A DNA stretch of 64,000 nt from Chitinophagales bacterium (GTDB lineage Bacteria; Bacteroidota; Bacteroidia; Chitinophagales; Chitinophagaceae), in the NCBI GenBank assembly GCA_015654595.1, contig JAATGQ010000125.1, forward strand, positions 1,209-65,208. The letters run 5' to 3'. The first letter of the stretch is position 1. Every line of letters begins with the position of its first letter. The notes beneath the pieces were generated by a model. It did not search any database, was not told where the DNA came from, and worked only from the letters and a program-made list of their open reading frames with translations. Shown here one piece after another: positions 5,716-23,561 of this stretch. The position numbers and the translations under genes were made by a program.

Positions 5716-6537
5716 ATGAAACAGTTACTTTTTATATCCGCAGGCAAAGCGTTCCCGGAGGGAGCCTTTGCCTTTCTGCATTCGCTGCGGCAGAAGGAAG
5801 CCTTCCATGTAAAGGGATTGTTTTTTAGTCCGCTGGACTATAACGGTATGCTCAGCGCCAGTTATGTTCCGGGTTCAGCCTCTTACGTCCAAACCAAAGA
5901 CAAGGAAAGACAAGCTGTATCGGAAAACAAATCCACTTTCGCACGCAAATGCGGGGAATCCCAGATCAATTTTCAGCTGCACCCAAATGATGAGCCGTGG
6001 GACAAACAGCTTTATATCAAAGAAAGCCGGTTTGCCGATGTCATTATTGTCAGCGGGGAAACGTTTTATTCGGAGATAGATGCCCAGGAGCCAAATCTCT
6101 TCCTGCATGAAGCGCTGCGGGAATCGGAAGCCCCGGTCATCGTCGTCCCCGAAAAGTTTACCGGGTTCGAGCAGGTGTACTTTGCTTATGATGGCAGTAG
6201 GGAAAGTCTGCACGCCCTCAAGCTTTTCACTTATCTGTTCCCCCACCTTACGCGGCTTCCGGCAGAAGTATTGTATGCCAAGGAAGAAGAGTCCGAAGAA
6301 CTGCCCGACCTTGATCTGCTAAAGGACTATGCCGGTTTGCATTATGCCAGTGTCGGATTTTCCAAACTGCACTTCAAAGCTTCTGATTTTTTCCCGTCCT
6401 GGATTGGCGACAAGGAAAATATCTTATTGGTAACGGGCTCTTTCGGTAGAAGCTCGCTTTCCTATCTGGCTAAACGCAGTTTTGCCGAGAAAGTGATCCG
6501 GGATCACAAACACCCCATTTTTATCGCCCACTTATAA
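5716..6537 (+). CDS. universal stress protein-like (tandem USP domains)
   Basis: SRFADVIIV, APVIVVP, FAYDGS, GSFGRS, PIFIAH; paralog of 10055..10876. Confidence 0.8.
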   Translation: MKQLLFISAGKAFPEGAFAFLHSLRQKEAFHVKGLFFSPLDYNGMLSASYVPGSASYVQTKDKERQAVSENKSTFARKCGESQINFQLHPNDEPWDKQLYIKESRFADVIIVSGETFYSEIDAQEPNLFLHEALRESEAPVIVVPEKFTGFEQVYFAYDGSRESLHALKLFTYLFPHLTRLPAEVLYAKEEESEELPDLDLLKDYAGLHYASVGFSKLHFKASDFFPSWIGDKENILLVTGSFGRSSLSYLAKRSFAEKVIRDHKHPIFIAHL

Positions 6538-6670: not shown

Positions 6671-6779
6671 GGCGCCATGTCAATCCATGGCATGACTTAT
6701 TCTGACATCCGCCCGCACCCAAATCAGCTTTTCTGCTGACGCATGTCAGTTCCCAGGCATCTCCGACGGACTACTTTTA
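6671..6779 (+). promoter_or_regulatory. Fnr/FixK-like box with phased half-sites and -7 promoter element of the YceI operon
   Basis: TGACGCATGTCA at 6737; half-sites in the same 22-bp phase at 6715 (..ATCA), 6693 (TGAC..) and 6671 (..GTCA); TACTTTTA starts 24 bp after the box end. Confidence 0.65.
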
Positions 6780-6821: not shown

Positions 6822-7421
6822 ATGAACGCCAGGTTTTATCTGGCAGCCAGGAAAACAGCGTTTTTCCTGCTGTCCTTTCAATTCTTGTTCTCTTCCGTCA
6901 ACGCCCAAACCCGCTATGCAGGCAGCGCTGCCGATCTCACCGTCAACGGAACGTCGACGCTTCACAACTGGAGCATGAAGTCGGCGAAAGCAGATTGCAC
7001 AGCCCAGTTCGATTTCGCGCCTGGCGGCACCATCGCAGGGCTTCAATCGCTGATCTTTTCTACGCCGGTCAATTTTCTGAAGAGCGAGCATAGCAGTATG
7101 GATAATAATGCCTATAAGGCGCTGAAGACAGATAAGAACCCCACCATCGCTTTTACGATGAGCTCGGTACTGGTAACGCCAGCCGAAGGAGGCGCCAGCA
7201 CGGTTAAGTGCACAGGTAAGTTAACGATTGCCGGCGTTACAAAAGACGTCCAGCTTACTGCCTTGTGTAAACCCAACGCCGATAATACGATCACGGTCAC
7301 CGGATCGCAAACCATCAGTATGTCCGATTTCAAGATCGACCCGCCCACTTTTATGATGGGCACGATCAAGACAGGCAACAACGTAACCCTCGTCTATTCC
7401 ATGATCCTTAAAAAAGCCTGA
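6822..7421 (+). CDS. YceI family protein (periplasmic)
   Basis: Signal peptide; GTSTLHNW, MDNNAYKAL..NPTI, GKLTIAGVTK, MSDFKIDPP. Confidence 0.85.
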   Translation: MNARFYLAARKTAFFLLSFQFLFSSVNAQTRYAGSAADLTVNGTSTLHNWSMKSAKADCTAQFDFAPGGTIAGLQSLIFSTPVNFLKSEHSSMDNNAYKALKTDKNPTIAFTMSSVLVTPAEGGASTVKCTGKLTIAGVTKDVQLTALCKPNADNTITVTGSQTISMSDFKIDPPTFMMGTIKTGNNVTLVYSMILKKA

Positions 7422-7463
7422 CTCATCCAATAACAGAACTTTTACATTTTTCAATTTATTATC

Positions 7464-8798
7464 ATGAAAAAGAGTTTCCAAAACATCGCTTATTTATTGC
7501 TTATTCTTCTATCTGGTCTGGGCCCGGCTGTAGTCCGCGCCCAGGTCTTCCAGGGCAAGATCCCGGGTTTGAGACCTTATGACCAGAGCGGCATCAACTA
7601 CTTCGAAGCCAAAAAAGATACGGCGGCCTATGATGGCTTCAGATTCCGTGTCGGCGCAGGTTTTACGCAGGAATTCCAGAGCCTGAAAGACAAGAACAAC
7701 TTCAGCGAAGTAAGCACGAATCCTTTATATAAGCTGTCGCCGGGCTTTAACCAGGCAGAAGCGAATTTGTATACGGACTTCCTGCTGGCAGACGGTATAC
7801 ATTTGAATGTGACCCTGTATCTGTCGACCCGTCACCACAATGAAACCTGGGTAAAAGGCGGCTACCTGCAATTCGACAAGCTGCCCTTCAAAGGTGAGTT
7901 CTGGGATAATATCATGAAGTACACGACCATCAAGCTGGGACAGTTCGAGATCAACTACGGCGATGCGCACTTCCGCAGAACGGACGGTGGTCATGCACTG
8001 TTCAATCCCTTTATCGAAAACAACATCATAGACGCCTTTGCCACTGAGATCGGCGGTGAAGTCACCGTTCAGAATAAAGGGGTATTCGGGATGGTTGGCT
8101 TAACGAATGGTATGCTGGATGCCAGCATCGACTCGGTAGCGTATACTACGGCCAACGGCGCGATACATAAGAATCCTGCCATCTATTTCAAGGCAGGTGT
8201 GGACAAACAGGTGAACGACCTGGTAAGACTCCGGTTATCGGGATCCTTCTATCACCTCGCCAGCTCATCGAGCAGCGATTTGTACTGGGGTGACCGCGCG
8301 GGTTCCAGTTACTGGATGGTCATGGAAAAGCCCTATACGGTTCCGGCTAGCGGCGAGAGCGCCTATCAAGGCGACGCCTGGTCCGGCAGGGTCAACCCCG
8401 GCTTTACCTATAAAGTGGACGCCGGTATGCTGAATGGTTTTGCAAAAATTGGCGGATTCGAGTTGTTTGGCACGTACGAACACGCAGAAGGCCGCAGCAA
8501 GACAGAAAAAAGCAACCGTCATTTCAACCAGTACTCTGTAGATGGCGTCTATCGCTTCGGACCAAAGGAGAATTTCTTTGTGGGTGCTAAGTATAATTCT
8601 GTGACAGCATTGCTCAACGGGATCAACAACAGTATCACCGTCAATCGTGTGGCTGGCAGCGCAGGCTGGTTCCTTACAAAGAATATCCTGCTGAAAGGCG
8701 AATATGTCACCCAAAAGTATCTCGACTTCCCCACCTCTGATTACAGAAATTCGGGTAAGTTCTATGGTTATGTGATTGCGGCTACGGTTGGCTTCTAA
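7464..8798 (+). CDS. putative outer-membrane beta-barrel protein of unknown function
   Basis: Signal peptide, alternating amphipathic aromatic-rich strands, C-terminal beta-signal YGYVIAATVGF. Confidence 0.72.
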   Translation: MKKSFQNIAYLLLILLSGLGPAVVRAQVFQGKIPGLRPYDQSGINYFEAKKDTAAYDGFRFRVGAGFTQEFQSLKDKNNFSEVSTNPLYKLSPGFNQAEANLYTDFLLADGIHLNVTLYLSTRHHNETWVKGGYLQFDKLPFKGEFWDNIMKYTTIKLGQFEINYGDAHFRRTDGGHALFNPFIENNIIDAFATEIGGEVTVQNKGVFGMVGLTNGMLDASIDSVAYTTANGAIHKNPAIYFKAGVDKQVNDLVRLRLSGSFYHLASSSSSDLYWGDRAGSSYWMVMEKPYTVPASGESAYQGDAWSGRVNPGFTYKVDAGMLNGFAKIGGFELFGTYEHAEGRSKTEKSNRHFNQYSVDGVYRFGPKENFFVGAKYNSVTALLNGINNSITVNRVAGSAGWFLTKNILLKGEYVTQKYLDFPTSDYRNSGKFYGYVIAATVGF

Positions 8799-8841
8799 CC
8801 GGAAGACTTTCACCCGCGTATTCAAATAAAACCGATCCGTT

Positions 8842-9450
8842 ATGATCTCCAATATTTTTCTTCCATCCTTGTTGTGCCTCCTGGCTATCGCTCCAAATGC
8901 GGGAAAGGAAAAAAGCTGCTGGGTCGTAGAAAAGAGCAGCAGTCTTCAGATCGTTGGAAAGACGAATATAAGCAAGTGGTCTTGCGGAGTGGCGGAATAC
9001 GCGGAACCTGATACAATAACATTTTTTGACGAGGGATGCCGCGGACAGGTGCGCGGCATCCCTCTTTGCGGGATCGTGCGGATCAATATCGGAGACTTCG
9101 ACTGCCGCAATTCACTGATGACCGGCGAGTTCAAGAAAACGCTGCAGTATAAACAGTACCCCCAGCTGACGATCTCTTTTTTGAACCTCGACCGGATGCC
9201 CGACGCCGCGGTCAAAGGGGAGACCTTGAGCGGAGAAGTGATGATTGCGCTGGCAGGAGTTGCCAAAAAGGTGGTGATGCGGTATTCTTCTACAAGGGTC
9301 GATGCGACCACCATCGAGCTGACAGGCGAACAATCCTTTTGCTTTGCGGACTTCGGATTAACCCCGCCGCGGAAAATGGGCGGACTGATAAGGGTTTCCG
9401 AAGGGCTGGACGTCCGTTTCCTGCTTTGTTTACACCGAATAAATCATTGA
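8842..9450 (+). CDS. YceI family protein (second, Cys-rich)
   Basis: SSLQIVGKTN, MTGEFKKTL..YPQL, IALAGV, FADFGLTPP; signal peptide. Confidence 0.75.
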   Translation: MISNIFLPSLLCLLAIAPNAGKEKSCWVVEKSSSLQIVGKTNISKWSCGVAEYAEPDTITFFDEGCRGQVRGIPLCGIVRINIGDFDCRNSLMTGEFKKTLQYKQYPQLTISFLNLDRMPDAAVKGETLSGEVMIALAGVAKKVVMRYSSTRVDATTIELTGEQSFCFADFGLTPPRKMGGLIRVSEGLDVRFLLCLHRINH

Positions 9451-9485: not shown

Positions 9486-9549
9486 TGATCAAGATCATAC
9501 CAGCGGCTGCTCGGGATCATGCCGATTGCCAGACATATAAATAATTTTG
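9486..9549 (+). promoter_or_regulatory. tandem Fnr/FixK-like boxes plus -7 element
   Basis: TGATCAAGATCA (9486) and TGCTCGGGATCA (9508), 22 bp apart; TAATTTTG at 9542. Confidence 0.7.
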
Positions 9550-9566
9550 TTATGGGAGTGTCTATT

Positions 9567-9935
9567 ATGGAATCAAGTTACGAGGTCAGGAATCACCTTA
9601 TCAGCCAGATACAGGAAGAGTTCAACAAGCTCTATCCCTATCTGAAAGTTGTGTTCCGCCAGCAGGGGAATAGCGCGAATGCCTTGCCTGTTACGGGACT
9701 GCACTCGGAAGAACAGATTCGTGATGGGGTCAGGAGTCTTTTGGAAAAAGACATTCACCTGATGGACGGTATGAAGGTCAGCGAGCTGGAAGATTCACTC
9801 GAACAGTTGTTTGGCCAGCGGGCCCAGGTTTTCCGCCGAAGCGGCAATTTCTGGATGGACACGCAGCTAAGCCGGGGCTGGACGCTCAAGCAGCAGAATG
9901 ATCATGGTCAGGACATTTCCTCGGGCTTTCTTTAG
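9567..9935 (+). CDS. conserved-looking small hypothetical protein
   Basis: ISQIQEEFNKLYPYLKV...VFRRSGNFW...WTLKQQN; start moved to ATG 9567 because the -7 box lies downstream of the track start. Confidence 0.7.
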   Translation: MESSYEVRNHLISQIQEEFNKLYPYLKVVFRQQGNSANALPVTGLHSEEQIRDGVRSLLEKDIHLMDGMKVSELEDSLEQLFGQRAQVFRRSGNFWMDTQLSRGWTLKQQNDHGQDISSGFL

Positions 9936-10054
9936 CCCCTGGGGGCGACTTCACTCTTGGGAAAGATAGTTTAAACATCCTTGTCGCCGGTTCAAATGAG
10001 TCCCCTCCCGATGACCGGAGGGGATTTTATGCGACACTTCTAAATTTTAAAAAC

Positions 10055-10876
10055 ATGAAAAAGATACTCTTTGTCTGTGCGGGCAACCATTTTCCGCAAG
10101 GCGCATTTCATTTTTTGCAAAGCATGCAGGAGCATAGCCCTGTAAGTGCCGATGGTTTGTTTTTTCCTCCTGCCGATCTGAAGGAAATGGCGGCTGTAAG
10201 CCAGGTCCCGGTCCTCGGGCCTTATGACCGGTTGAGGGAAAGGGAAAGAAGGACGGTGGATGAACACAAGGTTCAATTCAAGACGCGCTGCGAACAACAC
10301 GGCATCCGTTATCATATCCATCGCAACGATGAACAGTGGGATAAGGAGCTGTTGATTCGTGAAAGCCGTTTTGCAGACCTGATCCTTGTGAGCGGGGAAC
10401 TCTTTTGCGATGACCTGAGCTCACACCAGCCCAATGCCTTTCTGACCGAGGCCCTTCACTTTGCGGAATGCCCCGTTTTTGTCGTTCCGGAGAATTATGA
10501 ACATTGCCATCACCTGTATATGGCCTATGATGGAAGCAGGGAAAGCGTGTTTGCTATAAAGCAGTTTGCCGTCCTTTTCCCTTATCTGGCGGACTTGCCT
10601 GCGGAAGTCATTTATGTAAAAGACGAATCCTCGGAGTTGATCCCGGATCTGGAAAGACTCCGACATTATACAAAGGGGCATTTCGGCAGCCTGAATTTCA
10701 GCAAGCTGCATTTTAAGGCCGGTTCCAATTTTGCGGACTGGATCGAGGAAAAGCCGTATGCGATGCTGATCAGCGGCTCTTATGGCCGCAGCTCCCTGTC
10801 TTATCTGACAAAACGGAGTTTTGCGGGTGAAGTGATTGCCCGTCACAAGACGCCGGTGTTTGTCGCTCATCTCTAA
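10055..10876 (+). CDS. universal stress protein-like
   Basis: SRFADLILV, CPVFVVP, MAYDGS, GSYGRS, PVFVAH. Confidence 0.8.
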   Translation: MKKILFVCAGNHFPQGAFHFLQSMQEHSPVSADGLFFPPADLKEMAAVSQVPVLGPYDRLRERERRTVDEHKVQFKTRCEQHGIRYHIHRNDEQWDKELLIRESRFADLILVSGELFCDDLSSHQPNAFLTEALHFAECPVFVVPENYEHCHHLYMAYDGSRESVFAIKQFAVLFPYLADLPAEVIYVKDESSELIPDLERLRHYTKGHFGSLNFSKLHFKAGSNFADWIEEKPYAMLISGSYGRSSLSYLTKRSFAGEVIARHKTPVFVAHL

Positions 10877-10894
10877 CCTTATAATTTTTTTGTT

Positions 10895-11719
10895 ATGAAC
10901 CCAATTGTCGTTGCGACCAATTTTACTCCCAATAGCGAGAATGCGGCTTTTTATGCCGCAGACATGGCGTTGGCTGCCGGTATGGACATCCGGCTGGTCA
11001 ATGTGCTGAATATGCCCATTGTAGCGGCTTCAGAAGCCCCCATGCCGCAGATCGTATTTGACGATATGCGGGTAAGCAACCTGGCCTTGCTGGATCAGTT
11101 AGCGGAAAAGATGACGGCCAGGACTTTTGGTAAGGTCAGGATCATCCGGGACCTGGAGGTCGGAGAGACGGGCGCCTCGCTGACAGGCTATTGTAAAATG
11201 TATACGCCGTTCATGGTCGTGTTGGGAACCTCGGGGCATTCGCTGGAAAATCTGTTGTCCGGAAGTACGACAGCAAAAAGTTTGCATCGTCTCCACTGCC
11301 CCATCCTGGTAGTTCCCCCCGATGCGCGGTTCCACACCATCAAAAAGATAGTGGTTGCCGTCGGGAAAGAAGACCTGGGCGCCGGCAGCTTGCCGGAGCT
11401 GCCTCTTCTAAAACGGCTGAGTCAACAGTTTGAATCGGATATAGAAGTCGTGCACGTGATGGCAGACGAGGAAAGCGGCTCCGAAGCCGTGATGGCCTAC
11501 AATGGCTGGAAGGATCGGCTGACCGCTTTGAGTCCCGCCCTTCACCTGATCGAACCCGGGGACGTCCAACAAGGTATCCATCGGTATTTGAACGAGCAGT
11601 TGGCAGACTGGCTGCTTGTACTGCCTAAAAAACATGGCTGGCTGGAGTTTCACAAAAGCCAGGCAAAACAGCTGTTGACGCATTGCCCCATACCGGTTAT
11701 TACTATACATGAGGGATAA
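10895..11719 (+). CDS. universal stress protein
   Basis: IVVATNF, MVVLGT, LLSGSTT, CPILVVP, tandem USP domains. Confidence 0.88.
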   Translation: MNPIVVATNFTPNSENAAFYAADMALAAGMDIRLVNVLNMPIVAASEAPMPQIVFDDMRVSNLALLDQLAEKMTARTFGKVRIIRDLEVGETGASLTGYCKMYTPFMVVLGTSGHSLENLLSGSTTAKSLHRLHCPILVVPPDARFHTIKKIVVAVGKEDLGAGSLPELPLLKRLSQQFESDIEVVHVMADEESGSEAVMAYNGWKDRLTALSPALHLIEPGDVQQGIHRYLNEQLADWLLVLPKKHGWLEFHKSQAKQLLTHCPIPVITIHEG

Positions 11720-11792: not shown

Positions 11793-13355
11793 ATGTTTAA
11801 GGAAAAATCAACCCATGTTCTTTTATTTTGTTCCATCGTTACGATAGCGTCTGCAGTCCTGCAGTACCTGAACCCGTCCATGAGTTTTTTTGACGGTGGG
11901 CTGATAACGGCCATCCTGCTGACCATTTTTTTAAACAAGGACGGATACACGCATCTCTTTGGCGCGATCAGCGCGATCCTGGTTCTGGTCGCCGCGTTTT
12001 ATCCACACGAGGGGATGGACAGACAGCAGGTCATCCTACAGCATTTATTCTCTTTGATCGTTGTCGTAATGGCAACGATCTTTGTATTATATGTAAAGCG
12101 GTTGTACCGCAATATCGAGTCCGATCAGCAGCAGGTAACCGCCCTGTTCGAGCACGCGACGGAAGGCATTATCCTGACCAATGACAAAGGCCAGATCATA
12201 CTTTTGAATCCTGCCGCCTACCGCCTTTTTGAATATGAGCAGAACGAGCTGCCCGGCAAATCTATCGATGTGCTGATCCCCCAACGTTTTCATCATTCTC
12301 ACGTCAGCGACAGGGAAGGTTTTTATAAACACCCCGGCAACCGTACGATGGGGCACGGCCGTGATCTTTTTGCCCGCAAGAAGGACGGCCATGAGTTCCC
12401 GGTCGAGGTCAGCCTCAGCTATTACCGCCAGAAGAATACGCTGTTTGTCATCGCCTTTGTCGTAGATATCACGCAGAGAAAACAGTCGGAAAAGGAGCTG
12501 CTGTCGAGACAGCAACAGCTGGAACGTATCTCCCTCGAGGTTCGGAAGATGAATACTGAACTGGAGACGAAGGTCGAACAGCGTACGCTCATCCTGAGAG
12601 AAGCATTAAAGGAACTGGAAAAGTCGCAGGAGGAATTGAGTGAAGCCCTCAGTAAGGAAAAAGAACTGAACGAGATAAAGTCCAGATTCGTCTCGATGGC
12701 ATCGCATGAGTTTCGCACGCCGCTGAGTACTATTCTTAGCAGCGCTGCCTTACTCGGAAAGTATACGCAGACCGAAGAGCAGGACAAACGCGACAGGCAT
12801 ATCCGACGGATAAAGGACTCGGTAAAACATCTCAACGACTTGCTGGAAGACTTCCTTTCCCTCGGTAGACTGGAAGAAGGCAAGATCATGGCCGATCCCA
12901 CGGTCTTTTCTGTAAAGGATTTTCTCGAAGAAGTGGAGGAAGAGATGCGGACGATCACGAAGCCCGGCCAGGAGATCCGCTGTCATTGCGTTGGAGAAGG
13001 CAGCTTTGTAAGCGACAAACGGCTGTTGAAAAATATCCTGATCAATCTGATCAGCAATGCCTCGAAGTTTTCTCCGGATGGGGCCGAGATCCGGCTGGAT
13101 GCCGATGTGACGGAGGCCGGCACGCTTCGGCTGTCCGTGAAGGACCAGGGGATTGGCATCTCGGAGGAAGATCAGCAGCATTTGTTCAGCAGCTTTTTCC
13201 GCGGCGGTAATGCGCTGAATATCGAAGGGACAGGGCTGGGGTTGCACATCGTCGCCCGTTACGCTCAGCTTCTCGGGGGAAATGTAAAACTGGAAAGCCG
13301 GCTGAATGAAGGGACGACGATTACGGTAGAGGTGCCGGCCGCACCAGGGGTGTGA
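11793..13355 (+). CDS. membrane-bound PAS sensor histidine kinase (FixL-like)
   Basis: N-terminal TMs, PAS (LIPQRFHHSH...MGHGRDLFARKKDG..FPVEVSL), coiled coil, SHEFRTPL H-box, NASKFS / DQGIG / GTGLGL ATPase boxes. Confidence 0.92.
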   Translation: MFKEKSTHVLLFCSIVTIASAVLQYLNPSMSFFDGGLITAILLTIFLNKDGYTHLFGAISAILVLVAAFYPHEGMDRQQVILQHLFSLIVVVMATIFVLYVKRLYRNIESDQQQVTALFEHATEGIILTNDKGQIILLNPAAYRLFEYEQNELPGKSIDVLIPQRFHHSHVSDREGFYKHPGNRTMGHGRDLFARKKDGHEFPVEVSLSYYRQKNTLFVIAFVVDITQRKQSEKELLSRQQQLERISLEVRKMNTELETKVEQRTLILREALKELEKSQEELSEALSKEKELNEIKSRFVSMASHEFRTPLSTILSSAALLGKYTQTEEQDKRDRHIRRIKDSVKHLNDLLEDFLSLGRLEEGKIMADPTVFSVKDFLEEVEEEMRTITKPGQEIRCHCVGEGSFVSDKRLLKNILINLISNASKFSPDGAEIRLDADVTEAGTLRLSVKDQGIGISEEDQQHLFSSFFRGGNALNIEGTGLGLHIVARYAQLLGGNVKLESRLNEGTTITVEVPAAPGV

Positions 13356-14065
13356 CGGCGATGAGAGCCTTCGATCACGGCCGTCCGGTGACAGTCGATC
13401 GCGGCCGAAGGATGATCCGGCAGCACCGGGCTGATGAAGGGAATACCAAGGTTGAGCCCGCGCAAAATAAGCAGCACTCCCATCGTAGCCAGAAAGTAAG
13501 GGATCGCCTTTCGCATTTTCACACGAAGCGATACAGACAGCCGATGACCGTACCAGGTAAGGGCCGCCAGCAGGGGCAGCGTTCCGAGTCCAAAACACAA
13601 CATAAATCCTACCGCGCGACCGGTATCCCCGGTACTCAGCGCTGCTGCCAATGCAAAGTAGACCATGCCGCAGGGCAGCAGTCCGTTAGCCATCCCCATA
13701 AAGAAGAACTTCCCCGGCATTTTTATCGTCCAGAGGCGATAGATAACGCGATTCAGCGGACCGGGCAGTATCAGGATCTTTGTAGAGCGCAGCAGGGTAA
13801 AGATCAATACGAATATCCCGGCAATGATAGACAGCTGCTGCTGCCATCCCGCCAGGTAGAGGCTATGTCCAAGCACCCCAAACAAAAGCCCGAGCAGCAT
13901 ATACGTCGCGAGCCGCGCAGCATGATAAGAAACCTGTGCCAGCACCCGGCCGGAGGACGACAGGTGTTGAACGGGCAGGGCCATCAGCAACGGCCCGCAC
14001 ATCCCCGCGCAGTGAAAGCTGCTCAGCAAACCAAGGGACAACGCCGACAGAAGAAGCGGAAACAT
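13265..14065 (-). CDS. sulfite exporter TauE/SafE / DsbD_2 family membrane protein (cbb3 assembly associated)
   Basis: SFHCAGMCGP and NGLLPCGMVY motifs; last gene of the cco run. Confidence 0.85.
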   Translation of the reverse strand: MFPLLLSALSLGLLSSFHCAGMCGPLLMALPVQHLSSSGRVLAQVSYHAARLATYMLLGLLFGVLGHSLYLAGWQQQLSIIAGIFVLIFTLLRSTKILILPGPLNRVIYRLWTIKMPGKFFFMGMANGLLPCGMVYFALAAALSTGDTGRAVGFMLCFGLGTLPLLAALTWYGHRLSVSLRVKMRKAIPYFLATMGVLLILRGLNLGIPFISPVLPDHPSAAIDCHRTAVIEGSHRRHTPGAAGTSTVIVVPSFSRLSSFTFPPRS

Positions 14066-14502
14066 TATCGCAGGTCAAAGCTTTGTTCGTTAAAATAATT
14101 TTTCCCTTCCGCCGTCCAGCTGATCTTTACGGTGTAATGACCGGGGGCCAGCAGGTTGGACGCAATGGTTTGTGCGCCGTCGGCGCCCAGGGTCAGCGGC
14201 ACTTGTCTGTCTTTGGCCTGGTTGGAAGCGCAGTAAAAGAAAACGGTCCCCGTCGTCGACTGCCGCTGCATCTCTGCGGGCAGGCGTAGGGTGATCGCGC
14301 CGTTTTCTTCACGCAGGGTGGCGGCACTGGAAAGGTTGTTGGCATTACGGGTGGCATCGATGACCTGCTGATAAGCCAGCTCCTGTTTGTAGTAGTCGCT
14401 GGCCACGAGGTCTACCGGGGTGTTGACGCAACGATAAACAAGATAGGAGATGCCCGAGGCAAAGACGATAAAGACGATAGTGAGTTTATATCCCCAGTTC
14501 AT
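14065..14502 (-). CDS. ccoH: FixH/CcoH family protein
   Basis: MNWG..TM..DLVASDYYKQELAYQ motif, after ccoG. Confidence 0.85.
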   Translation of the reverse strand: MNWGYKLTIVFIVFASGISYLVYRCVNTPVDLVASDYYKQELAYQQVIDATRNANNLSSAATLREENGAITLRLPAEMQRQSTTGTVFFYCASNQAKDRQVPLTLGADGAQTIASNLLAPGHYTVKISWTAEGKNYFNEQSFDLR

Positions 14503-14513
14503 GATAGTATGTT

Positions 14514-15956
14514 TTAGTTGTTATCGGCTATAGGACCCAAGAAGTTGGTACGGATATCATCTATCTTTTTACCATTTTCATAGAGCCCGATATGTAATAG
14601 GGTTTTACGCTGCCGGATGTTTTGTTTTGGAAGGATGATAAAGAAATTGCCGGCGCCTTCTTCTTCCTTTTTGACGATCACCGATGAGCCGCCGATGACC
14701 TGGACGGTACCGTTGTTGTCTTCCAGCCGGAGCTGCAGCGGAATATCACGGATCGTTTTGTTGGCTATTTTGACGGTATAAAGGTTGGAGACGCTGTCCT
14801 GTCCCCTTTCCTGGTAAAGCATTCCGGGTGTACGCATCACCGTAGTGTCGACGTCTTTGCGGCTTAGCAGCAGCGCCGCCAGCAGGATAAGCAGTATAGA
14901 AAGCAGACCGGTATAGAGTTTCATCCGCAGTGTGTAGCGCAAGGGTTCGGCGGTAGAAATGCCATTTTCGGAGGCGTAACGGATAAGCCCTGTGGGCCGT
15001 CCCGTCTTTTCCATCATATGGTTACAGGCGTCGATACAGGCCGTACAACCAACGCATTCCATCTGAACGCCATTCCGGATGTCGATCCCGGTCGGGCATA
15101 CTTTGACGCACTGAAAACAGTCGATACAGTCTCCTAGTTCGGCGGATTTTGTCTTACTGAATTTGCCCCTTGGTTCGCCGCGTTTGTAGTCGTAGGCGAC
15201 GATCATCGAGTTCCGGTCAAGCAATACGCTTTGAAGACGACCGTAAGGACATATGGCGGTACAGACCTGCTCGCGAAAGAAGGCGTATACGCCGTAGAAG
15301 ACACCGGAAAAGACGAGCATGGAAAGAAGTCCTCCGATATGTTCACTGACACGGCCGGTAATGATCCCACCCAGCTGTTTTACACCGATGATATAGGCCA
15401 GAAAGGTGTTGGCGATAATAAAGGATAAAAGATAGAAAGCAACGTGCTTGGTAGATTTGATCAGGATCTTTTTTGTGGTCCAGGGTGCGGCTTTGAGTTG
15501 TCTTTGCCGGGGAGCATCGCCTTCGATCAGGTATTCGACCTTGCGGAACAGCATCTCCATAAAGACGGTCTGCGGACAGACCCATCCACAGAAAAGACGG
15601 CCGAAGGCGGCGGTGAAGAGGATCACGAAGATGATAAACGTGACCATCGTCAGACCGAAGATAAAGAAGTCCTGAGGCCAGAAGATCTTCCCAAAGACAA
15701 TAAAATGGGCCGACGAGATATTAAACAGGAATAACGGCTGCCCATGAATATAGATAAAGGGCAGTGCAAAGAACAGAAGAAAGAATCCTCCGCTGATCCA
15801 GCTGCGCATGTTATACCACTTGCCGTCGGGCTTCTGTGCAAAGACCCATTTGCGACGACCGCTGTTGTCGAGGGTGGCCAGGTGATCGCGAAAGGACTGG
15901 CCGGCAGCGGCGCTGCTGCCGAGGCTGCTGTTTTGAGCGGAAGATTCTTCTTTCAT
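14514..15956 (-). CDS. ccoG: cytochrome c oxidase accessory protein CcoG (4Fe-4S)
   Basis: GRLFCGWVCPQT, CPYGRLQ, CIDCFQCVKVCPTGIDIR, CVGCTACIDAC. Confidence 0.95.
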   Translation of the reverse strand: MKEESSAQNSSLGSSAAAGQSFRDHLATLDNSGRRKWVFAQKPDGKWYNMRSWISGGFFLLFFALPFIYIHGQPLFLFNISSAHFIVFGKIFWPQDFFIFGLTMVTFIIFVILFTAAFGRLFCGWVCPQTVFMEMLFRKVEYLIEGDAPRQRQLKAAPWTTKKILIKSTKHVAFYLLSFIIANTFLAYIIGVKQLGGIITGRVSEHIGGLLSMLVFSGVFYGVYAFFREQVCTAICPYGRLQSVLLDRNSMIVAYDYKRGEPRGKFSKTKSAELGDCIDCFQCVKVCPTGIDIRNGVQMECVGCTACIDACNHMMEKTGRPTGLIRYASENGISTAEPLRYTLRMKLYTGLLSILLILLAALLLSRKDVDTTVMRTPGMLYQERGQDSVSNLYTVKIANKTIRDIPLQLRLEDNNGTVQVIGGSSVIVKKEEEGAGNFFIILPKQNIRQRKTLLHIGLYENGKKIDDIRTNFLGPIADNN

Positions 15957-15960
15957 ATTC

Positions 15961-17133
15961 TTATTTGGATAGCGTCCCCTGAGGCGCTTTTGCGTTATCA
16001 GGATTGGTACCGTGCAGGGATTTCACATAACTGGCGATCTGTTGTATCTGGGATGGCGAAAAATCGTCTTTCCAGCTTTTCATGCCTTTGTCGGGCCAGC
16101 CATATTTTATCGTTTTAAAAACGTCCTGTATACTTCCGCCATGGAGCCAGTAGTCGTCGGTGAGGTTGGGACCTACCCCGCCCTCTCCGTGTTTGCCATG
16201 ACAGGCAAAGCAGATGCTTTCGAAGACGGTTTTTCCGGCGGCAAGACTTGCGGGATCGGTCAACAGTTTGACGGTAGTTTCGTCGACATTGTTGGCGGCT
16301 TTCTTGAGGTAGTCGGCCTTTGCCTGCTGGGCTTTCTGTACGGAGATCGCGTATTCTTCTGCACTAAGCGGCGCGGTGTGCCCGATATGATAGCGATAAA
16401 GATATATACAGGCAAAGATGATGGTGCAGTAGAAGCCATAGATCCACCATGGGGGCAGACGGTTGTCGAGCTCCCGGATGCCGTCATAGTCGTGGCCGAG
16501 GAGGATGTCTTTCTCTTGTTCGATGGGCTTGAAGCTGTTCACCTTATCCCAAAGGGTAACGGTTGGTTTTGCAGCAACAAGGGCAGCAGCGGCGGTCTTC
16601 TTTTTCTTTGCGATGAGTTTGCGCAGGTTGTAGAGCAGCCCCAGCACGATCAGAACTTCGAGGAAGATCACGCCGGTGATCACATAGAAAGCGGTGTCGG
16701 AGAGGCCATTGACGTTGGAGGTCACGACGCCGGCGGTCACGGTCGATGCGTCCGATCCGGCTGAAGCGTGGCCTGCATCTGTTGACTGGGCAGCAACTGG
16801 GCTGCTGATCAGCATCGTAGCAGCGATGATGATCCCGGCGATCAGCGTGGCGGCGGGCGGAAACCCCGTCGATGGGTTGGATGCGGCGGCAGGACCGCTG
16901 GCTATTAGGCTGCCTGCCCTGGCGGAAGCGTCGGCAGCAGGGCCGTTTTCGCTGGCGCGGCCCGGCTTTTCGGGAGCGCCAGGGCCATCGTCCCCTTCGG
17001 GATTGCCAAGCCTGTATTGGGCCGCGCCAAGAACCACGTTTGCGAGCAGGATAATGGCCAGCGCCAGGATCAGGATGACGACGATCATCATCACGACGAA
17101 TGAATTATCGGTGGAAGAAGGTACTGGTGGCAT
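15961..17133 (-). CDS. ccoP: cbb3-type cytochrome c oxidase subunit III (mono-heme, N-terminally extended)
   Basis: HDYDGIRELDNRLPPWW and a single CFACH heme motif, GPNLTDDYWLHGG. Confidence 0.92.
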   Translation of the reverse strand: MPPVPSSTDNSFVVMMIVVILILALAIILLANVVLGAAQYRLGNPEGDDGPGAPEKPGRASENGPAADASARAGSLIASGPAAASNPSTGFPPAATLIAGIIIAATMLISSPVAAQSTDAGHASAGSDASTVTAGVVTSNVNGLSDTAFYVITGVIFLEVLIVLGLLYNLRKLIAKKKKTAAAALVAAKPTVTLWDKVNSFKPIEQEKDILLGHDYDGIRELDNRLPPWWIYGFYCTIIFACIYLYRYHIGHTAPLSAEEYAISVQKAQQAKADYLKKAANNVDETTVKLLTDPASLAAGKTVFESICFACHGKHGEGGVGPNLTDDYWLHGGSIQDVFKTIKYGWPDKGMKSWKDDFSPSQIQQIASYVKSLHGTNPDNAKAPQGTLSK

Positions 17134-17149
17134 ATTACTATTTTTGGGG

Positions 17150-17320
17150 TTAGGCGTTGTCTTTTGTCAAAGGAATGTTCCGTATCTCTTCGATCATTCC
17201 GCGGTCTGCTTTAATGGTCCAGATAAGCATCACGAGGAAGATAGTGCCGAACAGCAGCAGGGAAGAGAGCCCATAGATACTGACGCCGCTGATCTTTTCG
17301 ATATAGTTGATAAATTTCAT
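17150..17320 (-). CDS. ccoQ: cbb3-type oxidase subunit CcoQ-like small membrane protein (56 aa)
   Basis: Manual translation MKFINYIEKISGVSIYGLSSLLLFGTIFLVMLIWTIKADRGMIEEIRNIPLTKDNA, one TM, between ccoNO and ccoP; below the track cut-off. Confidence 0.82.
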   Translation of the reverse strand: MKFINYIEKISGVSIYGLSSLLLFGTIFLVMLIWTIKADRGMIEEIRNIPLTKDNA

Positions 17321-17333
17321 GTGCGTTGTTTTG

Positions 17334-19490
17334 TTAGTTACCCATTACGGATGTTCCGTCTTTTGCCGCGGTCTGATCTTTTGGCGCCAGCTTTATATCC
17401 TTGCCAAGGCGTTGCAGATAAGCGATCAGCGCTACGATCTCCTTTGTATCGGGAGTACTGATCTTATCGCCCTTCAGGGAAGCCTTTATGCTGTCTGCCT
17501 GTTTGAGCAGGTCGTGGTTGGCTTGCAGCGCATAGTTATCGGGATAAGGCACACCCAGCTTCTGCATCGCATGGATCATAGACTCAGTGCGGTTGGTGTC
17601 GATGTTGTCATCGAACAGCCAGTTGTAAGAAGGCATGATCGAACCGGGTGACATGGAAGGAGGATCAAGCAGGTGGTTGTAGTGCCAGCTGTCGGGATAC
17701 TTCCCGCCTACCCTCGCCAGATCGGGTCCTGTTCTTTTTGATCCCCATTGAAAAGGATGGTCGTAGACAAATTCACCGGCTTTGGAGTACTCGCCATAGC
17801 GGGCTACTTCGTCTCGGAAAGGACGTACCATCTGGGAGTGACAGAGGTAGCAGCCTTCGCGGATGTAGATATCACGACCATGCAATTCCAGTGGGGTGTA
17901 GGGTTTTACGCTACTGATGGTAGGAATATTGGATTTAACGAGGAAGGTTGGTATCATTTCGATCAAACCGCCGATGGCAACCGCAATAAGGCTGAATACA
18001 AGCATTTGCAGCGGACGTCTTTCGATCCAGCGGTGCCAGTAGGTCTTGCCGTGTGTTTCGGTCTCTGCTTCAGCAGCCGGCGCCTGTGCCAGTTCGTTGG
18101 CGGTGAAGTAACCTTGTTTTATCGTCTTGTGAAGGTTATACGCCATTACAAATACACCGGACAGATAGAGTGCGCCGCCGATGCTTCGGGTGACATACAT
18201 CGGGATAATATGTGTCACCGTCTCGAGGAACTGGAACTTCAGCTGTCCTTCTTCGGTAAAGCTCTTCCACATCATGCTTTGAGTGAATCCCGCCCAGTAT
18301 AGCGGTACAGTGTAAAGCACGATACCGATAGTCCCGATCCAGAAGTGAGTAGTGGCGAGCTTTTTCGAGTACAGCGGCGTATTCCACATTTTTGGGATCA
18401 GGTAGTAGAGCACGCTGAAGGTCAGGAAGCCATTCCATCCCAGGGCGCCGACGTGTACGTGTGCGATGGTCCAGTCGGTAAAGTGAGAGATGGTGTTGAC
18501 GCTTTTAAGACTGAGCATGGGTCCTTCAAAAGTGGCCATGCCATAGCAGGTGATCGCGACGACCATAAACTTGAGCACGGGATCTTCTTTTACTTTATCC
18601 CATGCGCCGCGGAGGGTAAAGAGACCGTTTAGCATACCGCCCCAGCTAGGCGCCAGCAGCATGATAGAGAATACGACACCCAGCGACTGCGCCCAGTCGG
18701 GCAATGCGGTGTATAGCAAATGGTGAGGCCCTGCCCATATATAGATAAAGATAAGCGCCCAGAAGTGAATGATGGAAAGCCGATAGGAGTAGATCGGCCG
18801 ATTGGCGGCCTTTGGCAGGAAGTAGTACATCAGACCCAAATAGGGAGTGGTCAGGAAGAACGCAACGGCGTTATGGCCATACCACCATTGCACAAGCGCA
18901 TCCTGAACGCCGGCATACCAGCTATAGCTTTTCCAGAAAGAAACGGGCAATTCGATAGAGTTAACAATATGCAGCATCGCTACGGTGACCCAGGTGGCGA
19001 TATAAAACCAGATGGCGACATAGATATGCTTCTCGCGCCGTTGAAGGATGGTTCCGAACATATTAATGCCAAAGACGACCCATACAAGGGTGATGGCGAT
19101 ATCTAGCGGCCATTCCAGTTCGGCATATTCCTTACCTGTCGTCTTTCCCGCCCAAAGGGTGATGGCGCCAACGATGATGATCAGCTGCCAACCCCAGAAA
19201 TGGATAGCACTCAGGGTATTGCTGAACATCCTGGTCTTACAGAGTCTTTGCAGGGAATAGTAGACGCCCATAAAGATACCGTTACCCACAAAGGCAAAGA
19301 TCACGGCGTTGGTATGAACGGGGCGCATCCGGCCAAAGGTGGTGGCGGGGATACCCAGGTTCATAGACGGATAGTAGAGAGCAACGGCCGCCCACAGACC
19401 GGCGAGCATGCCGATGATGCCCCAGAAGACAACGGCGTAGGCAAATCGTTTAACCGTTTTGTTGTCGTAATAAAATTGTTCGAGTTGCAT
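17334..19490 (-). CDS. ccoN: cbb3-type cytochrome c oxidase subunit I/II fusion (CcoNO)
   Basis: QWWYGHNAVAFFLT, WAGPHH, HVHVGALGW, then EGCYLCHSQMVRP and WGSKRTGPDL; start at MQLEQ. Confidence 0.97.
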   Translation of the reverse strand: MQLEQFYYDNKTVKRFAYAVVFWGIIGMLAGLWAAVALYYPSMNLGIPATTFGRMRPVHTNAVIFAFVGNGIFMGVYYSLQRLCKTRMFSNTLSAIHFWGWQLIIIVGAITLWAGKTTGKEYAELEWPLDIAITLVWVVFGINMFGTILQRREKHIYVAIWFYIATWVTVAMLHIVNSIELPVSFWKSYSWYAGVQDALVQWWYGHNAVAFFLTTPYLGLMYYFLPKAANRPIYSYRLSIIHFWALIFIYIWAGPHHLLYTALPDWAQSLGVVFSIMLLAPSWGGMLNGLFTLRGAWDKVKEDPVLKFMVVAITCYGMATFEGPMLSLKSVNTISHFTDWTIAHVHVGALGWNGFLTFSVLYYLIPKMWNTPLYSKKLATTHFWIGTIGIVLYTVPLYWAGFTQSMMWKSFTEEGQLKFQFLETVTHIIPMYVTRSIGGALYLSGVFVMAYNLHKTIKQGYFTANELAQAPAAEAETETHGKTYWHRWIERRPLQMLVFSLIAVAIGGLIEMIPTFLVKSNIPTISSVKPYTPLELHGRDIYIREGCYLCHSQMVRPFRDEVARYGEYSKAGEFVYDHPFQWGSKRTGPDLARVGGKYPDSWHYNHLLDPPSMSPGSIMPSYNWLFDDNIDTNRTESMIHAMQKLGVPYPDNYALQANHDLLKQADSIKASLKGDKISTPDTKEIVALIAYLQRLGKDIKLAPKDQTAAKDGTSVMGN

Positions 19491-19501
19491 ATTGGGGTAT
19501 T

Positions 19502-19678
19502 TCAATTTTTATGAAGGTGTTCCGGATCTGTGATGAGTGGAGGGTCGTCGAATAAGATCCGTTGGGGTGGCGAAAAGCCGTCGTCATATTGTCTGTTCCT
19601 GACATTCCAGATAAATAACCCGAGGAAGACAAGGGCTACGGAGAGACTGGCTATCAGCAGGATGATGAGGACACTCAT
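19502..19678 (-). CDS. ccoS: cbb3-type oxidase assembly protein CcoS (58 aa)
   Basis: Manual translation MSVLIILLIASLSVALVFLGLFIWNVRNRQYDDGFSPPQRILFDD...; QYDD and RILFDD motifs. Confidence 0.9.
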   Translation of the reverse strand: MSVLIILLIASLSVALVFLGLFIWNVRNRQYDDGFSPPQRILFDDPPLITDPEHLHKN

Positions 19679-19706
19679 AAGTAAATGCGCTTAAAGAATA
19701 ATAGTG

Positions 19707-19771
19707 CAAAAGTATCGGGCGGCGGCGGAGCGCTGGATGACAGGGATCAAGGGAAAAACTGATTTTTCTCA
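19707..19771 (-). promoter_or_regulatory. tandem Fnr/FixK-like boxes plus -7 element of ccoS-ccoNO
   Basis: TGACAGGGATCA (19738) and TGATTTTTCTCA (19760), 22 bp apart; minus-strand TACTTTTG begins at 19714, 24 bp from the proximal box. Confidence 0.75.
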
Positions 19772-22339
19772 TTTTTGGGCTGTCGCGCTTGATCTGAGGC
19801 GCTTGCCGGATACATCAGGCGTGGCTGGTTTCGCCGATTTCCGCAGCAGCAGGCGTCCGGCCAATCCTGAACAGCTATAGGTAAGCAGCAATATGCTCAA
19901 TGAGCTTGCGGGCATCAGTATAGCGGCGACCAGCGGCGAAAGCTCGCCTCTGACGGCAAATGAAAGCCCCACGATATTGTATAGTATCGACACGATAAAG
20001 CTGGCCAGGATAATACGGTGTCCGGACCGGCAGAGCCGGATAAAAGCCGGCAGCTGCCATAGCTGACGCTCATTGAGGATGACGTCACTGGCAGGTGTGA
20101 AAGTGTTGTTGTCGGAAGAAAGCGCTATACCGACATTGCTCTGTCGCAGCGCACCGGCGTCGTTGAGGCCATCGCCTATAAACAGCACTTGTTTACCCGC
20201 GGCCTGCAGCTGGCTGATGTACCTCTCCTTGTCTGCGGGGGATTGATGAAAGAGGAGTTCAGCGTCGGGTCCGAATATTTCCTTCAGCCGCTGCTTTTCC
20301 CGGTCGGTATCTCCCGACAAAACGGAACAAGGCATGGGGAGTCGGCAGACTAGTTCGCCAATCCCCTCCCGGTAGTGGTTAGCGTAACGGAAGACGCCTT
20401 TATACTTCCCATCGATGGCGATGTGAACCGCCTGCCGGGAGTCGGGGTTGCCGGTGATAAAGGCTGAAGACCCGAGCCGGATATGATGGCCGGAGAAATA
20501 TCCCTCCAGACCTTTGCCGGGGATCTCCAGAAAATGGCTGACCGGGCCTTCGGGCTTTCCAGTAAAGAAAGCCGCCAACGCCTTACTATGCGGGTGAAGG
20601 GATTGGGATGCGATCGCAGCGATCGCATTTTTATCTTCGGGCGAAAGCGGCTTTCCTTCGAAGAAGATATCGGCCTTGGCGGAATCGGTAAGGGTTCCGG
20701 TTTTGTCAAAGACGATATGCGTCGTGGCAGCAATGCGCTCGATCGTCGGCGCGTTGCGCAGATAACATTGGTTCCTGGAAAGGATACGCAGCAGATTGCC
20801 ATTTGTAAAGGTTGTCGACAACAGCAGCGCACAGGGGCAGGCCACGATCAGCACGGCAGTGACGGCCGAGGCGATACGGGCAGGGTCATGAAAAGCCCAG
20901 AAGACGGCAGTCAGCGCGGCTATCGTAAAAAGTACATACGTAAAGTAGCGGCTCAGAATGTCAGAGGACGTGAGTGCAAAAGGCGAGCGCGCCGGCGCGG
21001 ACGCTCGCAGCCTGGTAGTTTGCGTGCTGGCGCTGGATGCTGTCTCTGATAGGGATGGCCGCAACGGCGCGGCTGGTGCGGGCTTCTCCTGCCGGTCCCA
21101 CAGCTGCGTCAGATAACTCTGCACCACTTCTTTGACGACAAGCACCTCTATCGACGAACCGGTCTGCCGGCCGCCGGCATACACCAGCTCGCCTATCTCC
21201 CGGGCAACAGGCGCCGATTCCCCGGTCACAAAACTATAGTCGATCAACGCCTTTCCGCGGGTAAGGATGCCATCGGCCGGGATCAGCTCGCCGTTATGGA
21301 TAAGGAGCGTGTCGCCTGACCGGATATCGGGGAGCGCCTTTACGGTTGGACCGGGCACGCCAACGCGCGATGAATCAGCGGCTGGCGCGACAATACTCAC
21401 AGCCATCGGAAAATAGGCCGTATAATCCCGCTCGAAAGAAAGCTGTCGGTAAGTCTTATCCTGCAACACACGACCGGCCAGCATAAAGAATACGATCCCG
21501 CTCATCGAGTCGAAATAACCCGACCCTGTTCCGGACAGCACCTCCCAGACGCTGCGGGAAAAAGTGACCCAGATGGCCAGCACGATGGGCGCATCGATAT
21601 TCAACAGCCCGCGGCGAAGACTGCCCCAGGCCGAACGATAAAATGGTATCGAGCTATAAAATAAAATGGGCAATGCCAGCACAAAACTGATATACCGAAA
21701 AGCCGTCTGCAGCGCCTTATCGGAAGCATCGGAACTGACCTTAAGTCCCAGGTATTCGGGAAAACACAGCAGCATGATATTGCCAAAACAGAATCCGGCT
21801 ACACCCAGCTGATAGACCATGGACCTGGACAGGCCGGGACGGCTTTGCCCCAGATCATGAAGACTGATATAAGGTTCATAGCCCAGACTGGCAAGGAGCT
21901 CTACGACCTGCCTCAGACTTATCTGCTGCTGGCGGAAGACAACAGATATTTTTTTGGCGGTAAAATCGATACGTGACGCTATCACGCCAGGCTCCAGCCG
22001 ATGAAGGTTTTCCAGCAGATAAAGACAGGAGCTGCAATGGATCTGTGGGAGGTAAAGCGTTGTATGGGTCTCTGTCTCATTTTTAAAGGACACCAGCGCC
22101 GTATTCATTTTTTCCTCGTCGAGAAACGCAAATTTATCCTTGCGGACCGAAAGACGGAGATTGATACCGGGATGATCATTCAGCTGGTAGTATTGGCATA
22201 GACCTCTTTCATCCAGCAGCTGATAAACCATCCGGCATCCCTGACAGCAAAACGATTTGTCGTCTAGCCAAATATCGTCTGTCGGGCAGGGTTCTCCGCA
22301 ATGCGTACAAAGGAGCGCTGATTCGGTAAGAGTTTCCAT
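19769..22339 (-). CDS. ccoI: heavy-metal (Cu) P1B-type ATPase CcoI/FixI
   Basis: CxHCG..CCxGC N-terminal domain, HCSSC HMA domain, TGES, CPC, DKTGT, GDGLND. Confidence 0.93.
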   Translation of the reverse strand: METLTESALLCTHCGEPCPTDDIWLDDKSFCCQGCRMVYQLLDERGLCQYYQLNDHPGINLRLSVRKDKFAFLDEEKMNTALVSFKNETETHTTLYLPQIHCSSCLYLLENLHRLEPGVIASRIDFTAKKISVVFRQQQISLRQVVELLASLGYEPYISLHDLGQSRPGLSRSMVYQLGVAGFCFGNIMLLCFPEYLGLKVSSDASDKALQTAFRYISFVLALPILFYSSIPFYRSAWGSLRRGLLNIDAPIVLAIWVTFSRSVWEVLSGTGSGYFDSMSGIVFFMLAGRVLQDKTYRQLSFERDYTAYFPMAVSIVAPAADSSRVGVPGPTVKALPDIRSGDTLLIHNGELIPADGILTRGKALIDYSFVTGESAPVAREIGELVYAGGRQTGSSIEVLVVKEVVQSYLTQLWDRQEKPAPAAPLRPSLSETASSASTQTTRLRASAPARSPFALTSSDILSRYFTYVLFTIAALTAVFWAFHDPARIASAVTAVLIVACPCALLLSTTFTNGNLLRILSRNQCYLRNAPTIERIAATTHIVFDKTGTLTDSAKADIFFEGKPLSPEDKNAIAAIASQSLHPHSKALAAFFTGKPEGPVSHFLEIPGKGLEGYFSGHHIRLGSSAFITGNPDSRQAVHIAIDGKYKGVFRYANHYREGIGELVCRLPMPCSVLSGDTDREKQRLKEIFGPDAELLFHQSPADKERYISQLQAAGKQVLFIGDGLNDAGALRQSNVGIALSSDNNTFTPASDVILNERQLWQLPAFIRLCRSGHRIILASFIVSILYNIVGLSFAVRGELSPLVAAILMPASSLSILLLTYSCSGLAGRLLLRKSAKPATPDVSGKRLRSSATAQK

Positions 22340-22356
22340 GTGCGTCGAATAATGCG

Positions 22357-22421
22357 GCAAAGTAGCCCGTGTGGTTAATACGGGGCCTGACCGTTATCAG
22401 GGAAATTTATGATCCTGGTCA
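22357..22421 (-). promoter_or_regulatory. tandem Fnr/FixK-like boxes plus -7-like element of ccoI (divergent from the regulator)
   Basis: TGACCGTTATCA (22388) and TGATCCTGGTCA (22410), 22 bp apart; minus-strand TACTTTGC begins at 22364, 24 bp away. Confidence 0.75.
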
Positions 22422-22490
22422 ACCTGTAGGGTGAATTATATTGTTTACAATTGCGGATCAATTACCTTTGATTACTTAAACAGTTATTCC

Positions 22491-23531: not shown

Positions 23532-23561
23532 AAATGGCCCGGAGTATTCCGGGCCATTTTT
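23531..23561. terminator. bidirectional rho-independent terminator
   Basis: AAAATGGCCCGGA-GTAT-TCCGGGCCATTTTT between convergent genes. Confidence 0.85.

Follow-up and report, generated by a model that had tools for sequence, protein, structure and literature searches.

What would an outer-membrane porin do with two lipocalin-like proteins under a low-oxygen promoter? The question is raised by three genes in a window of 64,000 nucleotides (the whole stretch of DNA that was analysed) from a Chitinophagales bacterium (GenBank assembly GCA_015654595.1, contig JAATGQ010000125.1, positions 1,209 to 65,208 of the forward strand), in which a gene for a β-barrel protein lies between the genes for two YceI proteins, here termed YceI-A and YceI-B. 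The physiological role of the widespread YceI proteins is unsettled, and the porins of Bacteroidota are poorly known. Our analysis indicates that this trio probably serves low-oxygen respiration, as a solute-specific porin that has dedicated YceI partners in the periplasm and no transporter of the inner membrane. As the cargo of the barrel we can name copper only tentatively.

A predicted porin gene enclosed by two YceI genes

The three genes lie on one strand, separated by 42 nt (YceI-A to barrel) and 43 nt (barrel to YceI-B):

6822-7421, plus strand: YceI-A, a secreted YceI/lipocalin-fold protein of 199 residues
7464-8798, plus strand: the barrel, a predicted 16-stranded, plug-less outer-membrane porin of 444 residues
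8842-9450, plus strand: YceI-B, a divergent paralogue of YceI-A of 202 residues with a Cys48/Cys88 pair

All three proteins start with a hydrophobic, signal-like segment as judged by eye. A preliminary description of this DNA had seen here three tightly spaced secreted genes, in which two divergent YceI-fold proteins flank a 444-residue barrel with a C-terminal Phe, the motifs STRHHNE and DAHFRR and no TonB plug. All of this is borne out, for YceI-A by a match to PF04264, for YceI-B by paralogy and structural similarity, and for the barrel by its sequence and a structural model.

That model (predicted local distance difference test score, pLDDT, 92; predicted template modelling score 0.90; built from a 112-sequence alignment) consists of 16 strands and a 33-residue N-terminal arm and contains no plug, a porin fold consistent with the TonB-independent channel that had been suggested. 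Structure comparison identified OprP as the nearest solved fold, with a Z score of 25.8 and, as rmsd (root mean square deviation), 3.3 for 332 aligned residues at 11% identity. Since PorB is nearly tied with it (Z 24.9), the fold says nothing about selectivity; FadL (Z 12.0) and the TonB-dependent barrels (about 12) rank far lower. Profile scans revealed no Pfam or NCBIfam family match for the barrel, and no sequence relative was found in the PDB. PF07396 was matched at E < 0.01 by only 6 of 112 family members, and by the window barrel not at all. The unit can still be called uncharacterised, as it was before. None of the characterised porins is related to the barrel in sequence.

Across 115 matched loci the mean identity is 51% for the barrel, 34% for YceI-A and 27% for YceI-B. 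Within the barrel, loops L2 (RHHxE), L3 (YGDxHFRRxD...NPF) and parts of L5 (GDRxGS, SGRxNP) are conserved, L3 and L5 being long as well, and so is the N-terminal arm, while L1, L4, L6 and L7 are variable. Conserved charged positions assigned to the inside, as inferred from strand order, occur on nearly every strand. A sequence-level check for the arginine ladder and phosphate-binding constriction of OprO/OprP gave 20 basic versus 20 acidic residues among the positions conserved at 85% or more. Three histidines are close to invariant among the 115 homologues, His124 (98%), His125 (100%) and His169 (97%), and they are located in the predicted extracellular loops L2 and L3. Given its presumably charged lumen and its conserved loops, the barrel reads as a solute-specific channel for small polar cargo rather than as a greasy tunnel. 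A divergent barrel subfamily of 29% identity (L110:8861-10234), whose named close relatives are of Rhodothermia type, keeps the His pair and the YceI-A neighbour.

Two divergent YceI proteins

YceI-A matches PF04264 with an E value of 7.6e-13 (49.5 bits against a cut-off of 23.7). YceI-B alone has no Pfam match, yet 66 of its 115 relatives match the same family, and HHalign identifies it as a paralogue of YceI-A (99.9%). The YceI-B model (pLDDT 92) superimposes on seven YceI structures with Z scores of 16-18.6, among them 3q34 (Z 18.6, rmsd 2.4, 163 aligned residues), and the Foldseek search that the preliminary description called for returned BcnA as its top match (E 1.2e-9). By its HHalign paralogy, YceI-A is predicted to have the eight-stranded lipocalin-like fold too.

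His48 (97%) and Trp50 (98%) of YceI-A are strongly conserved; Met93 (84%) and Met178 (69%) are often replaced by Leu or Val in homologues. The protein contains a PPxxMxGxIK loop and does not conform to the canonical N/E-x-R-D-x-H-L motif, the Arg of which aligns with Met93. BcnA likewise lacks the canonical Arg of RDxHL and was nonetheless crystallised with octaprenyl pyrophosphate (extracts of PMC5350466), so that Met in place of Arg is no bar to prenyl ligands in YceI-A. In YceI-B, Cys48 and Cys88 are both present in 102 of 115 sequences, both missing in 13 and never found singly; they likely form a disulfide. Lipoprotein signatures are uncommon among the YceIs (3 to 5 of 114). Joint prediction of the barrel with YceI-B and YceI-A (score 0.00, controls not folded) gave no answer and was given no weight on binding in either direction. 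Mutual information between the proteins, over the 115 matched rows, gave no interpretable signal, the top z values of 5-7 falling on variable positions.

The source genome has five further YceI matches, all of other types. It also carries a separate operon (L195:538-2841, G000:C24) that encodes an OB-fold-like anchor, a CXXCH lipoprotein, another type of YceI and a barrel-like protein.

Conservation of the unit in Bacteroidota

The barrel was found in 113 of 401 Bacteroidota genomes, mostly as a single copy; more than 6000 homologues were scored, and one is recorded in Flavobacterium johnsoniae, a non-pathogen that is tractable. For gene neighbourhoods we used 80 places from 77 genomes, taken down the score list, together with the best 80 of 583 confirmed loci from the Genome Taxonomy Database, and added the window where stated; the barrel list leaves out G000 and the 47-residue fragment G170. 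Once 18 loci with less than 2 kb of flank had been set aside, 143 were left, window included, that have 2 kb on each side. Two YceI genes lie within 2 kb of the barrel in 121 of these, one in 17 and none in 5, and the commonest order is YceI-A, barrel, YceI-B. The trio is a conserved unit, and on this point the preliminary description is supported.

Beyond the YceI genes no gene is a constant neighbour of the barrel in the 160 loci, and the conserved unit includes no inner-membrane transporter gene. Recurrent neighbours encode a 136-residue membrane protein, acetyl-CoA hydrolase/transferase (within 2.5 kb in 10 loci), zinc alcohol dehydrogenase, Usp, Pta/AckA and regulators. The preliminary description had called for a check of how far the trio and ccoNO keep together across Bacteroidota. 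Such co-location is not supported: no more than 2 of the 80 loci of the phylum sample have a true ccoN at a distance of up to about 10 kb, so the adjacency seen in the window is not the rule. A ccoNO-like match in locus L075 scores 57 bits where the cut-off is 583; it belongs to a distant haem-copper oxidase subunit and was left out of the count.

Whole genomes give a different level of association. With seven ccoN matches weaker than E 1e-100 left out, ccoN is present in 90 of 111 barrel-positive versus 166 of 289 barrel-negative genomes, clade II nosZ, for nitrous oxide (N2O) reductase, in 66 of 111 versus 67 of 289, and either cbb3 or nosZ in 102 of 111 versus 188 of 289. As related genomes are not independent, these counts are tendencies only.

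Several smaller observations can be added. The 136-residue membrane protein (for example L034:7913-8323) has no Pfam or NCBIfam match; 33 of 160 loci have its gene next to the trio, and its orientation varies. Genes of RND-type efflux systems adjoin the barrel or the trio in several separate contexts (L046, L077, L087, L091, L094 and L170). An apparent barrel fusion in L108 (an open reading frame, ORF, of 854 residues) was rejected as the product of a false upstream start. An in-frame run of YceI and barrel in L198, one of 82 Gemmatirosa-like loci, was rejected as well; in close relatives of this locus the two genes are separate, and a second frame break in the same gene points to a likely record error or a broken gene. 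A search for fusions among longer proteins (869-2480 residues) found none, which is weak evidence.

A probable low-oxygen promoter

Upstream of YceI-A the following elements are found:

6737-6748, no strand assigned: Crp/Fnr-type palindromic box TGAC-GCAT-GTCA (TGAC-N4-GTCA), from the sequence
6693-6726, plus strand: degenerate half-sites, TGAC at 6693 and ATCA ending at 6726
6772-6779, plus strand: variant TACTTTTA of the Bacteroidota -7 promoter element, 35 bp past the box start

The half-sites lie 22 bp (6715-6726) and 44 bp (6693) upstream of the full box. Of the phased Fnr-like box reported earlier, one full site thus stands, at 6737-6748, while the phasing at this promoter consists of degenerate half-sites only; full tandem boxes occur in the homologous promoters, with 18 pairs at 22 bp and 7 at 44 bp. 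In the window, ccoNO, ccoI and hemN have the same distance of 35 bp between box and -7 element as the trio, which upholds the claim of a common promoter design. The -7 consensus of Bacteroidota is TAnnTTTG, according to extracts of PMC9723704.

A box of the form TGAY-N4-RTCA was found upstream in 74 of 161 loci, compared to 3.2 on average and 8 at most when the 156 upstream regions longer than 150 nt were shuffled 100 times. From the box to a TAnnTTT element the distance is 35, 57 or 79 bp in 22, 18 and 7, respectively, of 81 box-bearing loci. The box is restricted by class, being present in 28 of 33 loci of the same class versus 2 of 47 others. In other lineages the regulators beside the trio are a PAS kinase with a NarL-type regulator, a PAS kinase with an NtrC-type regulator, or Rrf2.

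Candidate regulators and a target of the same promoter type lie further along the window, outside the trio:

11793-13355, plus strand: PAS histidine kinase, whose PAS domain resembles those of the haem-PAS oxygen sensors FixL and DosP
17334-19505, minus strand: ccoNO of the cbb3 oxidase, with a promoter box at 19738-19749 in the same -7 geometry
22431-23531, plus strand: receiver-Crp/Fnr fusion regulator, a candidate reader of the box

The PAS kinase is likely the sensor of a low-oxygen regulon. We infer with good support that low oxygen would induce the trio; the signal would pass through this haem-PAS kinase and an activator of the Crp/Fnr family. One cluster of genes induced at oxygen limitation in Flavobacterium psychrophilum comprises ccoNOQP, ccoI, ccoS and hemN (extracts of PMC9723704 and its supplementary file 4). 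The receiver-Crp fusion was rejected as a requirement for the box, which persists in 11 of 12 same-class loci from genomes with no detected fusion (five candidates scored per genome).

Positions 11793-26496 of the window make up a complete low-oxygen island with the kinase, ccoNO-P-G-H and a DsbD-like gene, ccoI, the receiver-Crp/Fnr fusion, acetyl-CoA hydrolase/transferase and hemN, and contain tandem boxes at 19738/19760, 22388/22410 and 26378/26400. An extra box is located just past the trio at 9486-9497. The trio itself is flanked by an unannotated ORF of 138 residues and three Usp-like genes (9519-11719 and 5716-6537); the 138-residue ORF adjoins the trio in five other loci too.

Relatives of the barrel beside copper enzymes

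A plasmid search revealed the barrel in Gemmatirosa kalamazoonensis, where the genes on plasmid 1 run kinase, NarL-type regulator, DUF3108, one Cys-type YceI, barrel, Rrf2, nosZ, nosL, nosD, nosF. A metagenome scan with the second Gemmatirosa barrel copy as query yielded 80 loci. In 26 of them (20 of the 50 with a length of 4 kb or more) there are genes for nosZ, nosD/Y, a plastocyanin-like cupredoxin, or NirK-like or other multicopper oxidases. Grouped at 70% identity the barrels make up 17 groups, and these copper-gene loci, together with the Gemmatirosa locus, represent 6 of them. One group has the order nosD-nosF-nosY-cupredoxin-barrel with no YceI detected, and in 13 of its loci the cupredoxin gene directly precedes the barrel. 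Usp genes recur in the metagenome barrel loci as well.

Of 82 Gemmatirosa-like loci, 25 have a DUF3108 gene upstream of the pair of YceI and barrel (L197:3567-4994, L198:4065-4895, L200:2-919), which may be a further component there. In L083 and L093 a barrel without YceI has as neighbours a two-component pair of the heavy-metal type, a methyltransferase and a multicopper-oxidase match; L083 additionally has DUF302 and a Met-rich protein.

What the porin may carry

If copper is the cargo, the trio could work as follows. Low oxygen, acting through the haem-PAS kinase and the Crp/Fnr-family activator, would switch on the three genes, and the porin would admit a small polar cargo without TonB, most likely copper as the free ion or a small chelate. 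The His124-His125 loop and His169 of the barrel would capture it and hand it over to YceI-A via His48, Met93 and Met178. The two YceIs would serve as periplasmic partners that feed copper enzymes, the cbb3 oxidase in this organism and N2O reductase or other copper enzymes in relatives. We favour copper because it is a common need of cbb3, NosZ, NirK and cupredoxins, because it fits the invariant histidines and balanced charges of the barrel, and because it explains why the barrel is kept in a nos operon that lacks YceI. The missing inner-membrane transporter fits a periplasmic destination.

A number of observations weigh against copper and the low-oxygen role. Of the 160 Bacteroidota loci, none has nosZ, nosD or nosY, or the plastocyanin-like cupredoxin, at a distance of up to about 9 kb, and a multicopper-oxidase match is present in just 5 of them. 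The adjacency to copper enzymes may reflect merely a shared low-oxygen island or shared control, because Usp, acetyl-CoA transferase, alcohol dehydrogenase and Pta/AckA are recurrent neighbours too. The barrel is missing from 166 of 256 cbb3-positive genomes, cbb3 and nosZ are both missing from 9 of the 111 genomes with a barrel, and nosZ was not found in the source genome (87% complete). No trio-like genes appear in the F. psychrophilum hypoxia cluster as given in extracts of PMC9723704, the supplementary text of which lies outside that coverage and may bear on the point. Within the proteins, Met93 and Met178 of YceI-A look weak as metal ligands at 84% and 69% conservation. It is hard to see what a lipocalin tunnel would do with a bare ion, and still 138 of 143 Bacteroidota loci have YceIs together with the barrel. 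The YceIs, with a tunnel that suits a prenyl chain and with Met residues that vary, are the weak point of copper.

The tunnel is better accommodated by a quinone-type shuttle, a close rival of copper that we consider possible but doubtful. Here the porin would admit small amphiphilic quinones, for instance humic quinones or a precursor of the naphthoate type. The YceIs would hold prenyl-quinones in the periplasm, acting in low-oxygen respiration as carriers or redox partners, with a cupredoxin replacing YceI in some nos operons. Such a shuttle explains the YceIs (see also extracts of PMC8981238). According to partial texts, the usual ligands in YceI structures are octaprenyl compounds or ubiquinone-8 (PMC9113575), BcnA, the best PDB match of YceI-B, binds menaquinone tightly (PMC5350466), and a YceI-YceJ electron-transfer route was proposed for Shewanella from co-expression (PMC8981235). 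It would also account for the YceIs as near-obligate partners of the barrel in Bacteroidota, and a cytochrome b561 gene adjoins the trio in 3 of 160 loci. However, it leaves the three invariant barrel histidines unexplained, no quinone-biosynthesis gene is a conserved neighbour (UbiD occurs at two related loci only), and 5 of 143 Bacteroidota loci, like the nos-cupredoxin clade, have the barrel but no YceI. Another close and likewise doubtful rival is an OprP-like channel for small anions that are consumed or produced when oxygen is low, nitrite/nitrate or fermentation acids, in which case the YceIs would be co-inherited protective lipocalins, BcnA-like scavengers of lipid peroxides at re-oxygenation, with no direct hand-over. 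The anion channel OprP is indeed the nearest fold, 20 basic residues are conserved, neighbours include acetyl-CoA hydrolase/transferase, Pta/AckA and NirK-like genes, and BcnA-LcoA guards against lipid peroxidation (extracts of PMC9113575). Against this, conserved acids equal conserved bases in number, and a dedicated YceI subfamily stays with the barrel while regulators change, which exceeds what co-regulation would predict.

The preliminary description had instead proposed the passage of an intact lipophilic cofactor (menaquinone, polyprenol or haem) through the barrel and its carriage by the YceIs. The YceI ligand record speaks for it (extracts of PMC9113575 and PMC5350466), as do the hemN and cbb3 promoters, which have the box of the trio, and the barrel histidines, which could ligate haem. 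But FadL-type channels for hydrophobic solutes rank far below OprP at Z 12.0, L3 and L5 are long and conserved, and one clade sits in nos-cupredoxin operons with no YceI detected. Because the conserved inward residues of the barrel, found on nearly every strand, are charged and three histidines are near-invariant, passage of an intact quinone, isoprenoid or haem is argued against and appears very unlikely. Haem, moreover, is near the usual size limit of porins. Most improbable of all is an ordinary phosphate/pyrophosphate porin of the OprO/P family with incidental YceI neighbours. The fold match to OprP/OprO, the 6 of 112 members that match PF07396 and automatic database names that read 'phosphate-selective porin' point that way, whereas identity is 10-11%, the window barrel has no PF07396 match and the trio promoter is of Crp/Fnr type. 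No phosphate-uptake gene was present among 110 neighbours scanned, save one separate Porin_O_P gene.

Comparison with known systems

Like OprP and OprO of Pseudomonas aeruginosa (2o4v, 4rjw; PF07396), the barrel is 16-stranded and plug-less with an N-terminal arm; unlike them it has 11% identity, no family match, balanced conserved charges and invariant histidines, and it comes with a Crp/Fnr-type promoter and dedicated YceI partners. The LcoA-BcnA-BcnB operon of Burkholderia resembles the trio in having two YceI paralogues of the same fold in one operon. In that operon and in YceJ-YceI of Escherichia coli the partner is cytochrome b561, whereas here it is an outer-membrane porin, and no cytochrome b561 gene is linked to the trio in the window. 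YceI-B further differs by its Cys pair from the BcnA homologues, which have no cysteines according to extracts of PMC9113575. The trio promoter is of a low-oxygen type, while BcnA responds to antibiotic and superoxide stress.

FixL-FixJ-FixK/FNR regulons share with this locus a haem-PAS-like kinase, a Crp/Fnr activator and a TGA-N6-TCA-type box at ccoNOQP, ccoI, hemN and usp. They differ in that the box here is TGAY-N4-RTCA, with 22-bp tandem repeats and a position 35 bp before the Bacteroidota -7 element, and that the activator candidate in the window is a receiver-Crp fusion.

NosA and OprC are outer-membrane copper channels of the TonB-dependent type with 22 strands and a plug. NosA of Pseudomonas stutzeri is reportedly a nos-linked outer-membrane copper channel and would be a precedent for copper uptake by the trio; the likeness lies in a channel gene beside nos genes, low-oxygen control and a proposed copper supply. 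The trio barrel, unlike these, has 16 strands and only a 33-residue arm, and its copper role is putative. Taken to its full extent, the proposal is slightly more tentative than the assignment of the cargo. It would then be TonB-independent copper import by a His-gated 16-stranded porin and lipocalin-fold partners, with which Bacteroidota and Gemmatimonadota would supply their cbb3 oxidase and their clade II N2O reductase, a functional counterpart of NosA in the main soil N2O consumers.

Significance

The porin and the YceI proteins are each of known kinds; their combination is undescribed. We found no description of a porin-YceI unit in the full-text literature, a coverage that stops short of subscription papers and most supplements, and the extracts of PMC5429918 and PMC9478572 contain nothing on the trio. 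A porin-YceI unit under a recognisable low-oxygen promoter makes both the role of YceI and the question of Bacteroidota porins testable. Should a quinone shuttle prove true, YceI would gain a defined transport role. If the cargo is copper, the trio would name the missing metal-acquisition step of clade II N2O reducers and cbb3 users, and as copper limits these enzymes, it would have a bearing on soil N2O sinks.

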